Positions 2,731-54,656 of a stretch of DNA of 64,000 bases are shown here, piece after piece. The position numbers and the translations under genes are program-made. Under the pieces are notes generated by a model. That model was not told where the DNA came from, did not search any database, and saw only the letters and a program-made list of their open reading frames with translations. Position 1 is the stretch's first letter, and every line of letters starts with the position of its first letter. Origin of the DNA: Escherichia phage vB_EcoM_SP1. The stretch lies in the sequence record MT682709.1; one strand, given 5' to 3'.

Positions 2731-3364
2731 ACGCTTTTTTCATGGCCTCTGCGAGAGCCATATAGGCGTCATCGGCACTTGTATCGGCTTCCGCCGTCTG
2801 TGATTCGGTAATTTCCTTAGGAGTTACCCATGCATCTGGAGCACTTGGACCCCATACTGCATCAACACCTACAGTTAATTTGAATCCTTCGTTTACGATA
2901 CGATAACCTTTATTTGTGTCAGTCAATGAACCTAATCCACGAGAAGAAACTCCTGGAATCCATCCGGCACGAATATTAGCTGCTAATTTATCTCCAGGAC
3001 CGTGGTCACCTTCAATAACACGAGCTCGTCCGTATACGTCATTTCCTTTCCACCACATATCTTCTATAATGATAGCGGCTTGCATCGGGTCAACATTAGC
3101 GCGTGGAGGATGATTTAATTCTCCGAGAGCTTGTTTAGTTAAAACTTGCTCATTAATATAGTCTTTTACCGCTTTTTCTAATATGCGTTTTGGATAAAGA
3201 CGTTTATTTCTATTGACGACTTCTGCTTGCATGAATATTCCTTCGATGTATAAACCAGGTTTTAAACCTAAGTCTTTTCCATCGTGGGATTCAAGCATTG
3301 GCACACCATCAATAATTTCGCCAGGTTGACCCCAAGTTTCAATTAGTAATTGGGGTTCATTCAT
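2726..3364 (-). CDS. 21: prohead core protease gp21
   Basis: 212 aa, T4 gp21 size and position between 22 and 68. Confidence 0.9.
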   Translation of the reverse strand: MNEPQLLIETWGQPGEIIDGVPMLESHDGKDLGLKPGLYIEGIFMQAEVVNRNKRLYPKRILEKAVKDYINEQVLTKQALGELNHPPRANVDPMQAAIIIEDMWWKGNDVYGRARVIEGDHGPGDKLAANIRAGWIPGVSSRGLGSLTDTNKGYRIVNEGFKLTVGVDAVWGPSAPDAWVTPKEITESQTAEADTSADDAYMALAEAMKKAL

Positions 3365-3789
3365 TAGCTTAATCCTAATGCTTTACGGCGTTTAAGAGCT
3401 TTTTTACGCTTACGCTGAGCACGAGATTGACCTGCTGGATTGGCAATCTTCGTTTTGGTAGCTTTGCGAGCAATTTGTCTACGTTTTGCTTTAGACAGCC
3501 CAGTGGTTTGAAATGCATTACGTTCGCGTGTTTTGCGGTCTTTAGTACGTGTAATTTCACCACGAGCTGAAACGTGCTTAACAATGAATTCATTTAACGG
3601 CATGTTTTCATTAATAGAAGCTAATGCAACTGCTAAATCAGTTTCATCATCAAGCATATTCTCGACAATTGTATTTATATCGTCTTTATTTAAAGCAGAA
3701 GACAATTCGTCAAAGCGACCCTGTGCTTCAGGAATAAGTGCTTCGACATTCTCGAGAACTAATTCATGAGTTTCAGGGATCAGAAGCAT
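3364..3789 (-). CDS. 68: prohead core protein gp68
   Basis: 141 aa basic protein in the T4 gp68 position. Confidence 0.75.
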
Positions 3790-33052: not shown

Positions 33053-33235
33053 ATGAAACGTTGTGAATTAATTCGAAATGTTGCTATTGCAATTTCTGCT
33101 TCCGCTTTTAGTTTTTCAATGTTTGTTGGATTTATATGCGGATTATTAACTACAGCAGAAAATGTGTTTTCACTTGTAGTAGCATTTTTAATTGGTTTAA
33201 TTGCTATCGTTATGGATAAAATTTCTAAAGGTTAA
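33053..33235 (+). CDS. small hydrophobic membrane protein
   Basis: 60 aa, two predicted TM helices, GGAG RBS. Confidence 0.55.
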   Translation: MKRCELIRNVAIAISASAFSFSMFVGFICGLLTTAENVFSLVVAFLIGLIAIVMDKISKG

Positions 33236-42967: not shown

Positions 42968-43293
42968 TGACAGACACGCAACTTTTCGAATATCTTTATT
43001 TTTCGCCAAAAACTATTAAAAATAAATTGGTGAATCATTTTGAAATTTTGGCAAATAACAACGCCTTGAGCGAATTTTATCCTAAGCAATACAAATTACA
43101 AAAAGGCGTATTCAAAGGATGCAGAGTTTTGTGCACTGCTCCTAATGCAAGATTAATGAATAAAATTCCATATTTTACCATGGAATTTATTGATGGGCCT
43201 TTTAAAGGACTAATCACCCAAAGTTTAATGGCATATGATTCTGAGCCATTTTTAATTAAAGAACAATCTTGGATAAATTTATTTTCTAATTGA
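42964..43293 (+). CDS. hypothetical protein
   Basis: ATG overlapping the upstream stop; 109 aa. Confidence 0.5.
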
Positions 43294-43301
43294 GAGGTTA
43301 T

Positions 43302-43664
43302 ATGAAAGCATATCAAATTCTTGAAGGCACGCATAAAGGTACTATTTATTTTGAAGATGGTATTCAAGCACGAATTATTGTCTCTAAAACTTTTAAAGAG
43401 GACTCTTTTGTAGACCCAGAAATTTTCTATGGTTTGCATGCCCGTGAAATTGAAATTGAAACACAACCTACAGTTAAAATTGAGGGTGGTCAACACCTGA
43501 ACGTAAACGTTCTGCGTCGTGAAACTCTGGAAGATGCAGTTAAGCATCCGGAAAAATATCCGCAGCTGACCATCCGTGTATCCGGTTATGCAGTTCGCTT
43601 TAACTCTCTGACTCCGGAACAGCAGCGCGACGTTATCGCTCGTACCTTTACTGAGAGTTTGTAA
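43302..43664 (+). CDS. GrcA/YfiD-like autonomous glycyl radical cofactor
   Basis: C-terminal 60 aa carry the RVSGYAVRF glycyl-radical motif and are essentially identical to recalled E. coli GrcA, with host-like codons. Confidence 0.8.
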
Positions 43665-44144: not shown

Positions 44145-44422
44145 TGGCCCAATTAAGCGCAGGGTTTGGTTATGAGTATTATACTGCCCCTCGTCGTGTA
44201 TCTGTTGCTCCTAAGAAAATTCAAAGTCTTGATGATTTCCAGGAAGTAATTCGTAACGCTTTCCAGGACTATGCGCGTTATCTTAAAGAAGATTCACAGG
44301 ACTGTCTCGAAGAAGATGAAATTGCTTACTATACGCAGCGTCTTGAACAGCTTAAAAACCTACATGAGGTCCGTGCAGAAGTTTCAAAGTCTATGAATAA
44401 ATTGATTAGATTTAAAGAATAA
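44144..44422 (+). CDS. hypothetical small protein (Acb2/Vs.4 candidate position)
   Basis: 92 aa from the ATG overlapping the upstream stop. Confidence 0.45.
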
Positions 44423-44424
44423 CT

Positions 44425-44454
44425 GTTTACTTTTCCTCTTGACTGTGGTATAAT
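44425..44454 (+). promoter_or_regulatory. early promoter (GTTTAC ... TGgTATAAT) upstream of regB
   Basis: 18-bp spacing. Confidence 0.6.
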
Positions 44455-44481
44455 TTTTCTATCAGTTAAGAGGAGAATAAC

Positions 44482-44943
44482 ATGACTATCAACACAGAAG
44501 TTTTTATCCGTCGAAATAAGCTCCGTCGTCACTTTGAGTCGGAGTTTCGTCAAATTAACAATGAGATTCGTGAGGCATCAAAAGCAGCAGGGGTCTCATC
44601 GTTTCATCTAAAATATTCTCAACATCTTCTTGATCGTGCAATTCAACGGGAGATTGATGAGACATATGTTTTTGAATTATTCCATAAAATAAAAGACCAT
44701 GTTTTAGAAGTTAATGAATTCCTAAGTATGCCTCCGCGTCCTGACATTAATGAGGATTTTATTGATGGGGTTGAATATCGTCCTGGGCGTTTAGAAATCA
44801 CCGATGGAAATCTTTGGCTTGGATTTACAGTTTGTAAACCTAACGAGAAGTTCAAAGACCCGTCACTTCAGTGCAGGATGGCAATTATCAACAGTCGTCG
44901 TTTACCGGGAAAGGCTTCTAAAGCAGTAATTAAAACTCAATGA
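44482..44943 (+). CDS. regB: site-specific endoribonuclease RegB
   Basis: 153 aa; matches recalled T4 RegB (MTINTEVFIRRNKLRRHFESEFRQINNE...). Confidence 0.8.
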   Translation: MTINTEVFIRRNKLRRHFESEFRQINNEIREASKAAGVSSFHLKYSQHLLDRAIQREIDETYVFELFHKIKDHVLEVNEFLSMPPRPDINEDFIDGVEYRPGRLEITDGNLWLGFTVCKPNEKFKDPSLQCRMAIINSRRLPGKASKAVIKTQ

Positions 44944-44950
44944 GGTAAGC

Positions 44951-45496
44951 ATGAGAAAAGCACTACTCGCTGGTCTATTGGCCATTTCAATGATGGCACA
45001 TAGCTCCGAGCATACTTTCAGTAATGTCCAACTCGATAACATGCGTTACGCGTATCAATTCGGGGAACAATTTTCTAAGGATGGAAAATATAAAACACAC
45101 AAAAATATCCACAAGAGCGGATTAGGTCATATAATGGCTGCTATTTTATGGCAAGAAAGCTCTGCCGGAGTTAATTTAAAATCTAAACCAAAGCATCATG
45201 CCTATGGAATGTTCCAAAATTATTTGCCGACAATGCGAGCAAGAGTTAAGGAACTTGGTTATAATATGACCGATGCTGAAATAAAAAGAATGTTGAATAA
45301 ACGGTCCAATTCAGCTTCCTGGGCGTACATTGAACTTTCTTATTGGTTAAATATACATAAGGGTGATATAAGAAAGGCAATATCCTCTTATAATTCGGGA
45401 TGGAATGTTAAAGCAGGTTCTAAATATGCTTCTGAAGTCCTAGAAAAGGCTAACTACCTTAAAAGTAATAAACTACTGGAAATAGTAAATGACTAA
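44951..45496 (+). CDS. secreted lytic transglycosylase-like protein
   Basis: Signal peptide; SLT-like motifs ILWQESSAG, HAYGMFQ, SSYNSGW. Confidence 0.55.
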   Translation: MRKALLAGLLAISMMAHSSEHTFSNVQLDNMRYAYQFGEQFSKDGKYKTHKNIHKSGLGHIMAAILWQESSAGVNLKSKPKHHAYGMFQNYLPTMRARVKELGYNMTDAEIKRMLNKRSNSASWAYIELSYWLNIHKGDIRKAISSYNSGWNVKAGSKYASEVLEKANYLKSNKLLEIVND

Positions 45497-45830
45497 AATT
45501 TTGGTTTTATGTATAGGATTAATTTCATTTTCTGCGTTAGCAAATACATCATATACTGAAATTAGAGAGTATGTAAACCGTACTGCCGCGGATTATTGCG
45601 GGAAAAATAAAGCATGCCAAGCTGAATTTGCGCAGAAATTAATATATGCATATAAAGACGGAGAAAGAGATAAATCAAGCAGATACAAAAATGATACTTT
45701 ATTAAAACGATATGCTAAAAAGTGGAATACCTTAGAATGTTCAGTTGCGGAGGAGAAAGATAAAGCCGCTTGTCATTCAATGGTTGACCGTTTGGTAGAT
45801 TCTTATAATCGAGGATTGAGTACTAGATGA
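45489..45830 (+). CDS. small secreted protein
   Basis: 113 aa with N-terminal signal peptide and four Cys. Confidence 0.5.
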   Translation: MTKILVLCIGLISFSALANTSYTEIREYVNRTAADYCGKNKACQAEFAQKLIYAYKDGERDKSSRYKNDTLLKRYAKKWNTLECSVAEEKDKAACHSMVDRLVDSYNRGLSTR

Positions 45831-46306
45831 TTGTAAAATATATCAAGGGCGATATTGTCGCCCTATTTCTTCAAGGTAATATTATTGCGCATGGGTGCAA
45901 CTGCTTTCATACTATGGGTTCAGGTGTAGCAGGTCAATTAGCAAGGGCCTATCCTAAAATTTTAGAAATAGATAAAACCACTACTGAGTACGGTTCTCGT
46001 GATAAATTAGGTGATATGTCTATTGTTTTTAAACATAATCCTACAGGATTTGGTATATGCTATAACCTGTATACACAATACGAACCAGGTCCTAATCTTG
46101 ATTATGGTGCTTTAGTAAACTGCATGATAGAATTAAATCTACAGGCAGAAACCCTTTTGTTTAAACCAGTAATTTACATTCCACGCATAGGTTGTGGTAT
46201 TGCTGGCGGTGATTGGGATAAGGTTTCTAAATTAATCGACATGTTTACTCCTGATATTGATTTAATAGTGGTGGATTATGAAAGCACATTACCCGCATCC
46301 GTTTGA
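45827..46306 (+). CDS. macro-domain-like protein
   Basis: HGCNCFHTMGSGVAGQ and IPRIGCGIAGGDW resemble macro-domain ADP-ribose-binding loops. Confidence 0.5.
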   Translation: MIVKYIKGDIVALFLQGNIIAHGCNCFHTMGSGVAGQLARAYPKILEIDKTTTEYGSRDKLGDMSIVFKHNPTGFGICYNLYTQYEPGPNLDYGALVNCMIELNLQAETLLFKPVIYIPRIGCGIAGGDWDKVSKLIDMFTPDIDLIVVDYESTLPASV

Positions 46307-46490
46307 TCCTAAAAACAAAGTGGAAATTATTCGTCAATGGGAACGCATTTGCCGTACTAAATGCCCAATTAATAGTCCACATGATGTAGATAAAGACTAT
46401 ATTGGAACATTCGTTGAATATACCTTTATTGATAAGAAAGGTCGTAAACAGCATGTAGAAGAATATTGCTTAAAGGTTACATGGTTATGA
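46278..46490 (+). CDS. hypothetical small protein
   Basis: 70 aa. Confidence 0.45.
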   Translation: MKAHYPHPFDPKNKVEIIRQWERICRTKCPINSPHDVDKDYIGTFVEYTFIDKKGRKQHVEEYCLKVTWL

Positions 46491-54248: not shown

Positions 54249-54656
54249 ATGAAACAGTTGATAATTAAAAGATTGAATTTATTGATATGTTGTTTATGTG
54301 TAGTAGTTGCATATGGTTATTACGCAATTAATGATTATATGCACTATAAAGATTATGATGTTACTGTAGTTAATACTATTACAGGAACACAAGGAAAGGG
54401 GTCTAGTTTATCGTTTATTGCCGTATATGAACTCAAAGACGGTTATAGATTTAGTGAATATATTTCCCCAGAGATGTATTCTTCAATAGAAAAAGGTGAT
54501 AATATTACTGTAAGTTTACGTCCTTTCGACGTAAAACAGACACTGTTTGATAATATTGTTTGGTTCTTTGGGATGGTATTAGTTCAATCCGTGTGTGGTG
54601 CTTATATAGTCTGTTCAATCATATTCTGTGTATTTAGTAAAATTGAAATTGAGTGA
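54249..54656 (+). CDS. membrane protein
   Basis: 135 aa, N- and C-terminal TM segments. Confidence 0.5.
   Translation: MKQLIIKRLNLLICCLCVVVAYGYYAINDYMHYKDYDVTVVNTITGTQGKGSSLSFIAVYELKDGYRFSEYISPEMYSSIEKGDNITVSLRPFDVKQTLFDNIVWFFGMVLVQSVCGAYIVCSIIFCVFSKIEIE

Follow-up and report, generated by a model that had tools for sequence, protein, structure and literature searches.

Two overlapping genes in the early region of a T4-like phage raise the question of whether such phages send a murein-cleaving enzyme into the periplasm soon after infection, and whether the protein encoded next to it, which carries the name of a host valyl-tRNA synthetase (ValRS) modifier, travels the same way. We examined both genes in a window of 64,000 nucleotides from Escherichia phage vB_EcoM_SP1 (sequence record MT682709.1). 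An initial annotation of this stretch, made from the letters and their open reading frames (ORFs), had described two adjacent signal-peptide proteins, one of them resembling an SLT-type lytic transglycosylase. Its interpretation stood as regards the SLT-type enzyme and the Sec-type N-termini, but it did not identify the ORFs with T4 vs.1 and vs, genes that already bear names, nor did it note that Vs has been assigned as a ValRS modifier.

Genomic context of vs.1 and vs

The window belongs to a T4-like Tequatrovirus. Over nucleotides 44400-46400, identity to several Escherichia phages and other Tequatroviruses is 99.9%, and nucleotides 44951-45830 share 96.5% nucleotide identity with T4 itself. 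Gene order is as in T4 (vs.6, vs.5, vs.4, vs.3, regB, vs.1, vs, tk.4, tk.3, tk.2, tk.1, tk, rI.1, rI), with vs.6 encoding a GrcA-like glycyl-radical protein. By sequence and T4 synteny, ORFs 44951-45496 and 45489-45830 correspond to vs.1 and vs, early genes of the T4 type that lie in the early block regB-vs.1-vs-tk.4, and the initial placement of two overlapping ORFs in an early region agrees with this assignment. The elements of the block are as follows:

44426..44454, plus strand: sigma-70-like early promoter candidate upstream of regB, TTTACT-17-TGnTATAAT (10 of 12 matches, extended -10; a consensus match only)
44482..44943, plus strand: regB, site-specific endoribonuclease, upstream neighbour (Pfam REGB_T4, E 1.2e-68; T4 annotation)
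44951..45496, plus strand: vs.1, 181-aa precursor of a predicted small, soluble GH23/SLT-type lytic transglycosylase
45489..45830, plus strand: vs, 113-aa precursor annotated as valyl-tRNA synthetase modifier (97% identity to T4 Vs; PHROG 1256, E 6.5e-40)
45827..46306, plus strand: tk.4, macro domain, downstream neighbour (Pfam Macro, E 5.8e-8)

The promoter candidate is the probable start of a regB-vs.1-vs-tk.4 transcript, and regB, vs.1 and vs are probably co-transcribed; the count of promoter-like sites in the region was not above shuffled expectation. The end of regB lies 8 nt before vs.1, whose Shine-Dalgarno sequence is GAGG. The vs start codon falls within the final codons of vs.1 and is preceded by a weak Shine-Dalgarno sequence, and since the two ORFs overlap by 8 nt, their translation is probably coupled. 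Downstream, there is a 4-nt overlap between the vs stop and tk.4, whose product is AdfM in T4 (preprint 10.1101/2025.11.20.689424).

Vs.1 as a predicted lytic transglycosylase

Vs.1 is identical to T4 Vs.1 (NP_049725) at 179 of 181 residues (99%), with A72G and S172N as the only substitutions. The T4 protein, listed as a 'conserved hypothetical protein', is encoded in the same place between regB and vs, and nothing functionally distinct separates the two. Similarity of vs.1 to SLT enzymes is already published and annotated, and in this respect our finding is a re-discovery of known T4 genes. Nolan et al. 2006 (PMC1524935) matched vs.1 of six T4-like phages to the SLT domain (E values of 0.012-0.74), proposing 'some role in cell lysis'; as cited there, the 2003 T4 genome review made the same PSI-BLAST observation. 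In many GenBank entries the gene goes under 'SLT transglycosylase' or 'lytic transglycosylase domain-containing protein', and NCBIfam holds no model for either Vs.1 or Vs. Our literature search returned no experimental work on Vs.1, and specifically no report of its cleaving murein, giving 1,6-anhydro-MurNAc products or being exported.

Two features of the Vs.1 sequence bear on its predicted activity:

45131..45412, plus strand: SLT catalytic domain, residues 61-154 (Pfam match coordinates; invariant columns)
45155..45157, plus strand: GAA codon of Glu69, the predicted single catalytic acid/base (invariant; aligns with MltE Glu64)

The Pfam SLT model (PF01464) scored 22.8 bits on Vs.1 (E 7.2e-5), which is above the gathering cut-off of 21.3 and borderline for a single sequence. 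We found 78 homologues, all 171-188 aa long except for one 119-aa fragment, and 29 of 31 diverse family members matched the same model at E <= 0.01 (best 1.3e-7). The strings quoted in the initial annotation (ILWQESSAG, HAYGMFQ and SSYNSGW) are all present in the translation at the places given, and they contain the family motifs in the expected order: WQ-E69-S (motif I), G86-M-F-Q89 (motif II) and S-Y147-N148-S-G150 (motif III). Across the 31 aligned homologues, which reach down to 40% identity, E69, G86, F88, Q89, Y147, N148, G150 and Y159 are invariant. When the relatives from Felixounavirus wV8 and Kuttervirus PS5 (both at ~30% identity) and E. coli MltE are added, E69, G86, Q89, Y147 and G150 stay so. 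The E69-S70 pair is invariant or nearly so among the 31 homologues and the Kuttervirus and Felixounavirus relatives. The initial proposal had been staked on conservation of the glutamate of this ES motif; Glu69 proved invariant in the 31 homologues and in the ~30%-identical relatives alike.

Alignment to the SLT family, suggested earlier as a check, matched residues 61-154 to PF01464 and set E69 on Glu64 of MltE, a correspondence returned by both MAFFT and hhalign (the MltE E64Q mutant structure is PDB entry 4hjy). Motifs II and III align with GLMQ and SYANG of MltE. In the AlphaFold2 (AF2) model (pLDDT 88.6, pTM 0.82), E69 sits at the C-terminal end of helix 59-70, and the predicted fold is lysozyme-like, alpha-helical and superimposable on solved family members, with Foldseek E values of only ~1e-2. 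Sequence-only searches of PDB chains with Vs.1 and with its family profile gave nothing significant, and when the Vs.1 profile was compared with MltE as a single sequence, hhalign recovered the expected register at E 0.17, a result used for residue correspondence only. Because the PDB-chain, hhalign and Foldseek scores are weak, the family assignment rests on the borderline Pfam score and the predicted structure. The kinship of Vs.1 to SLT enzymes, read from sequence and model, is remote yet consistent at every level testable in silico. The resemblance first noticed in the ORF translation is upheld by a Pfam score above cut-off, three motifs in order and the AF2 fold, and by every in-silico test Vs.1 is a predicted GH23/SLT-type lytic transglycosylase.

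A borderline Pfam score, 13-18% identity to characterized enzymes and the lack of any reported activity in the literature found would also accord with Vs.1 being a catalytically dead SLT relic that binds peptidoglycan. This is extremely improbable given that neither the catalytic Glu nor any of the three family-1 motifs varies among relatives down to ~30% identity and that Vs.1 is the most conserved gene of the cluster (51-71% identity, compared with 47-67% for RegB and 50-67% for Tk.4); invariant motifs together with the highest conservation form the pattern expected for an active site under selection.

Predicted export of Vs.1 and Vs

Signal peptides were judged by a heuristic that looks for a basic n-region, a hydrophobic core of 7-15 residues, small residues at -3/-1 and no lipobox. 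It called one in each protein:

44951..45004, plus strand: predicted Sec signal peptide of Vs.1, residues 1-18, MRKALLAGLLAISMMAHS, cleavage AHS|SE (heuristic)
45489..45542, plus strand: predicted Sec signal peptide of Vs, residues 1-18, MTKILVLCIGLISFSALA, cleavage ALA|NT (heuristic)

By the same heuristic, the tripartite N-terminus occurs in 31/31 Vs.1 and 9/9 Vs homologues with freely variable sequence, and also in the more distant Vs proteins (24-31% identity) of phages Moon, Roth80 and Phi1. The signal peptides that the initial annotation had proposed for both ORFs are thus matched by conserved Sec-type N-termini in both families. In the AF2 models, N-terminal residues 1-20 are detached from the fold (pLDDT ~55 in Vs.1 and <52 in Vs). 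A crude filter for signal-type N-termini picked 7 of the 161 ORFs in the window, including vs.1 and vs as well as RI, which is known to be periplasmic in T4; one evident false positive was the macro-domain protein. The heuristic calls argue strongly for export of Vs.1, and export of Vs appears, on balance, the likelier outcome as judged from its sequence.

Exported SLT enzymes may also be held at the membrane, and we considered whether Vs.1 could be a tethered enzyme of the signal-arrest-release (SAR) type or an MltE-like lipoprotein instead of a freely soluble periplasmic one. Its Ala-, Gly- and Ser-rich hydrophobic core (ALLAGLLAISMMA) recalls SAR domains, and many bacterial family-1 transglycosylases are lipoproteins, MltE itself with LLAGC. 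However, the uncharged run of Vs.1 comprises just 16 residues (4-19) and leads into a canonical A-H-S cleavage motif; we rejected a membrane anchor or SAR domain because this run is too short. Vs.1 is also without any cysteine, which makes a lipobox impossible and rules out a lipoprotein, and in those homologues whose h-region does contain a Cys, position -1 is not occupied by an allowed residue. Measured against the definitions of the two classes (a span of at least 18-20 residues for SAR endolysins, L-x-[GAS]-C for lipoproteins), Vs.1 belongs to neither. Membrane tethering of Vs.1 is in our view very unlikely.

Possible role of Vs.1 in infected cells

Taken together, these analyses make it reasonably probable that Vs.1 reaches the periplasm through Sec, loses its signal peptide near residue 18 and works there as a soluble lytic transglycosylase of family 1, its acid/base being Glu69. 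Vs.1 would be made as a 181-aa precursor, exported through Sec and cut after about residue 18, with both export and cleavage site predicted from the N-terminus, to yield a soluble, single-domain periplasmic enzyme of ~18.8 kDa. Slt70 and MltE provide the analogy for catalysis: Glu69 would act as the single acid/base, cutting the MurNAc-beta-1,4-GlcNAc bonds of host murein and leaving 1,6-anhydro-MurNAc ends. Vs.1 would serve neither as the lysis enzyme, which is gpe, nor as the entry enzyme, which is gp5. Its early production, and the fact that plaques form without it, make a limited remodelling of the sacculus the most likely role of Vs.1; such remodelling or loosening in infected cells would be accessory and bring a modest gain in fitness. 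The initial annotation had also raised superinfection exclusion, to which our results lend no specific support.

Vs.1 differs in several respects from the enzymes it resembles. The GH23 enzymes Slt70, Slt, MltC, MltE and MltF (Pfam SLT) share 13-18% identity with it and are bacterial, whereas Vs.1 is encoded in an early transcription unit of a virulent phage. Unlike the bacterial family-1 enzymes, it lacks superhelical, LysM or lipid-anchor modules and consists of a single minimal domain of ~163 residues with a 40-residue N-terminal extension. Small secreted SLT enzymes 'specialized' for secretion or conjugation systems include IpgF, IagB, VirB1 and P19. These enzymes, like EtgA, the only member of the group compared here, are encoded together with an envelope-spanning machine that recruits them, and we know of no such partner for Vs.1. 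Another parallel is T4 Spackle (gp61.3), the periplasmic inhibitor of the gp5 lysozyme, which like Vs.1 and Vs as predicted is a small early product with a signal peptide (PMC7677548). From Spackle it is evident that small early proteins directed against murein enzymes are among those exported by T4.

A tblastn search recovered relatives of Vs.1 from 2085 phage records, including straboviruses of Escherichia, Klebsiella, Aeromonas, Vibrio and Acinetobacter. Those in Kuttervirus (Ackermannviridae) and Felixounavirus, at ~30% identity, again lie in early or middle gene neighbourhoods. Bacterial relatives are small chromosomal genes of enterohepatic Helicobacter, located between glyS and a Cu-ATPase gene, a housekeeping context that says nothing about function. 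Relatives thus occur in more than 2000 sequenced phages from three unrelated groups of virulent myoviruses (Straboviridae, Kuttervirus and Felixounavirus). T4 has the gp5 tail lysozyme and the endolysin gpe; Vs.1 would add a third enzyme that cleaves murein, deployed separately from both, and a conserved, early, predicted periplasmic transglycosylase of this kind marks a modest but real gap in the picture of the best-studied phage.

Sequence and predicted structure of Vs

Vs aligns with T4 Vs (NP_049724) over 113 residues, 111 of them identical (97%). The differences, a 2-aa deletion and two substitutions, all fall at the junction of the predicted signal-peptide c-region and cleavage site, and residues 20-113 are identical. 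T4 Vs, the tau factor (PHROG 1256, PF26829), occupies the same gene position, and its predicted mature part is 100% identical to that of Vs here. A precomputed match to PF26829 (ValRS_modifier) exists on Vs homologues. The predicted mature protein is:

45543..45827, plus strand: predicted mature Vs, 95 aa, 11.0 kDa, pI 9.05

Tau factor has been reported as about 10 kDa. The AF2 model of Vs (pLDDT 85.4) is a four-helix bundle with helices at residues 15-37, 41-63, 68-84 and 89-110, and Vs may be described as a fast-evolving 11-kDa four-helix protein that, by its sequence, would also be exported. Four cysteines (Cys37, Cys43, Cys84 and Cys95) are conserved. The initial annotation counted four in the ORF, a number that holds for the mature part; there are five in total, one of them in the signal-like segment. 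All Vs homologues, distant ones included, carry the pattern C-x5-6-C ... C-x8-10-C together with a signal-like N-terminus. Judged by the helix boundaries of the model, the four cysteines appear to lie at the same end of the bundle. This arrangement fits two disulfides, as in an exported protein, and would also fit a Cys4 metal site.

Relatives of Vs are few. An exhaustive profile search found 8 among 1.84 billion cluster representatives and a word-index search found 6, while a sequence-only search of PDB chains gave nothing significant. More distant homologues (24-31% identity), from Moonvirus, Krischvirus and a Klebsiella strabovirus, were found only by inspecting the gene directly 3' of vs.1 in other genera. 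By tblastn, Vs occurs in 795 phage records, and it is confined to phages of Enterobacterales. It diverges about twice as fast as the neighbouring genes.

Do Vs.1 and Vs act together?

Adjacent genes for two predicted exported proteins invite the idea of a periplasmic pair, with Vs as an exported, disulfide-stabilized regulator (inhibitor, activator or targeting factor) of Vs.1 or another murein enzyme. T4 Spackle and the gp5 lysozyme would offer an analogy for such a pair; Spackle, too, has a helical fold. The start of vs inside the final vs.1 codons with a weak Shine-Dalgarno sequence is in keeping with this idea, as is the position of vs directly 3' of vs.1 in every strabovirus genus examined that has vs, and the fast evolution of Vs is of a kind often seen in arms-race or regulatory partners. 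The distributions of the two genes argue otherwise. Vs.1-like genes occur in 2085 phage records against the 795 with detectable Vs; Aeromonas phages, Kuttervirus and Felixounavirus have a Vs.1-like gene without Vs; and there are natural variants with identical Vs.1 that lack vs (L003 against L004 and L005). Adjacency as such was rejected as proof of partnership, since synteny covers the block in its entirety and vs.1 is often present where vs is absent.

Fitness data come from a HIDEN-SEQ transposon study of T4 (preprint 10.1101/2025.11.20.689424), in which both genes were non-essential on LB plates, with 46 of 52 TA sites hit in vs.1 and 30 of 32 in vs. Mean counts for vs.1 were 22.6 in the liquid LB control and 11.9 in M9-glucose (log2FC -0.87; p 0.0055, adjusted p 0.155), and those for vs were 26.6 and 5.0 (log2FC -2.19; p 0, adjusted p 0), which made vs the most depleted gene in M9-glucose (10.1101/2025.11.20.689424). 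Neighbouring genes had control means of 179 (regB), 652 (vs.3), 265 (vs.4), 290 (tk.4) and 767 (tk.3), so that liquid-LB counts for vs.1 and vs were about 10-fold below those of their neighbours, and a clean vs knockout gave poor plaques on M9 (10.1101/2025.11.20.689424). As the only cluster genes with lowered insertion counts, moving in the same direction in M9, vs.1 and vs could share a pathway. The lowered vs.1 counts could equally reflect vs.1 insertions that reduce translation of the coupled vs, or polarity on vs. Strong transcriptional polarity is argued against because insertions in the upstream regB are not depleted. On balance, we find a working Vs.1-Vs pair unlikely.

Vs: synthetase modifier or exported protein?

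In classical biochemistry and genetics, T4 Vs acts on cytoplasmic ValRS; later papers cite Muller and Marchin 1975/1977 for ValRS binding. Binding to ValRS needs a cytoplasmic location, and the export of Vs predicted from its sequence therefore contradicts the classical role. The textbook reading would place Vs at least partly in the cytoplasm, where it binds the host synthetase as tau factor and alters its properties. It implies that the N-terminus is inefficient as an export signal, that the cysteines are metal-bound or reduced and that vs.1 is a neighbour by synteny only.

This reading draws on the annotation of T4 vs and hundreds of orthologues, the name given to PHROG 1256 and PF26829, and the impairment of the vs knockout specifically on minimal medium, where amino-acid supply matters. 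It also gains from the synteny of the regB-vs.1-vs-tk.4 block as a whole, in which adjacency is not specific to vs.1 and vs, from four cysteines at one end of the bundle that would suit a Cys4 metal site, and from the restriction of Vs to phages of Enterobacterales, whose ValRS proteins are similar. Our literature search returned no Vs-ValRS structure or interactome. Against the textbook reading, a complete Sec-type N-terminus has been kept as a property, and not as a sequence, in every Vs homologue, even at 24% identity; its charges follow the positive-inside rule (C-terminus out), and the AF2 model places it outside the fold. A signal-less isoform made from an internal start is impossible, given that Vs has no in-frame start codon before M98. 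Homologues of Vs are ~30% identical where Vs.1, RegB and Tk.4 keep 47-72%, which would be odd for the ligand of a highly conserved enzyme, and T4 Vs produced at full length with an N-terminal His tag in the E. coli cytoplasm proved insoluble (PMC8076793). On this evidence we regard a cytoplasmic ValRS modifier as possible, if somewhat doubtful.

A further reading makes Vs, listed for some 50 years as the T4 synthetase modifier, a Sec-exported, Cys-stabilized periplasmic four-helix protein, translationally coupled to Vs.1 and working with it or on another envelope target, with the ValRS link arising from a mis-assigned tau factor or from an association confined to extracts. Stated in full, with its explanation of the classical data, this proposal is rather unlikely. 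Localization of Vs could confirm or overturn the textbook assignment, and it may explain the minimal-medium phenotype of vs mutants: if Vs is periplasmic, their defect on minimal medium would be an envelope phenotype.

Relatives of Vs.1 in phages and bacterial records

Secreted SLT proteins resembling Vs.1, each at approximately 30% identity, are encoded by two further phages:

3001-3594, phage wV8 (Felixounavirus; locus L009): Vs.1-like secreted SLT protein, directly after rIIA-rIIB
2953-3570, Salmonella phage PS5 (Kuttervirus; locus L010): Vs.1-like secreted SLT protein, after the gp46 recombination-nuclease gene

Since both phages carry such proteins, the predicted early periplasmic transglycosylase is, on the basis of sequence comparison, common to three unrelated virulent myovirus groups. 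Small Vs.1-like SLT genes (27-32% identity) were also found on the chromosomes of enterohepatic Helicobacter (loci L016-L026), and in H. trogontum the gene is flanked by glyS and a copper P-type ATPase gene. Among the bacterial records, a 167-kb contig labelled as a 'bacterium' MAG (L014) is probably a T4-like phage genome that was binned as a bacterium.

Variable presence and annotation of vs

The Vs.1 protein P0078, which is 40% identical to Vs.1 of the window, is 100% identical among metagenome contigs L003 versus L004 and L005, yet only some of these contigs carry vs and its two downstream neighbours; an antiholin (rI-like) gene comes next. The contigs of this set without vs are natural deletion variants. 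In Klebsiella phage vB_Kpn_F48 (L006), the unannotated gap between vs.1 and tk.4 contains a gene that was not called by the depositors:

1971-2321, L006: full-length Vs homologue

Possible allelic replacement and a hairpin at tk.4

Two features lie immediately downstream of vs in the window:

45827-46306 (+): tk.4, macro-domain protein (Pfam Macro, E 5.8e-8)
45846-45864: perfect, GC-rich hairpin AGGGCGA-TATTG-TCGCCCT, 20 nt within tk.4 and right past the vs stop

The T4 orthologue of Tk.4, an anti-DarTG2 factor, has lately received the name AdfM (10.1101/2025.11.20.689424). In protein comparisons, Tk.4 of the window was 95% identical to the Shigella phage SP18 allele and only 57% identical to T4 Tk.4, while the flanking Vs and Tk were 98-100% T4-like; with this mismatch, the anti-defence gene tk.4 seems to have undergone a local exchange of alleles. 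A T-rich run follows the hairpin, and this arrangement, although inside a coding region, resembles a terminator or an RNA-processing element.

Other ORFs of the window

Three additional ORFs were noted:

43290-43664 (+): vs.6, autonomous glycyl-radical protein similar to GrcA/YfiD (Pfam Gly_radical, E 2.3e-18)
33053-33235 (+): ORF with a strongly hydrophobic N-terminus
54249-54656 (+): ORF with a strongly hydrophobic N-terminus

The C-terminal half of the vs.6 product appears to be nearly identical to E. coli GrcA. The GrcA-like nature of vs.6 is already in the literature (PMC1524935). The latter two ORFs were caught by the heuristic signal-peptide filter, and their products are likely small membrane proteins.
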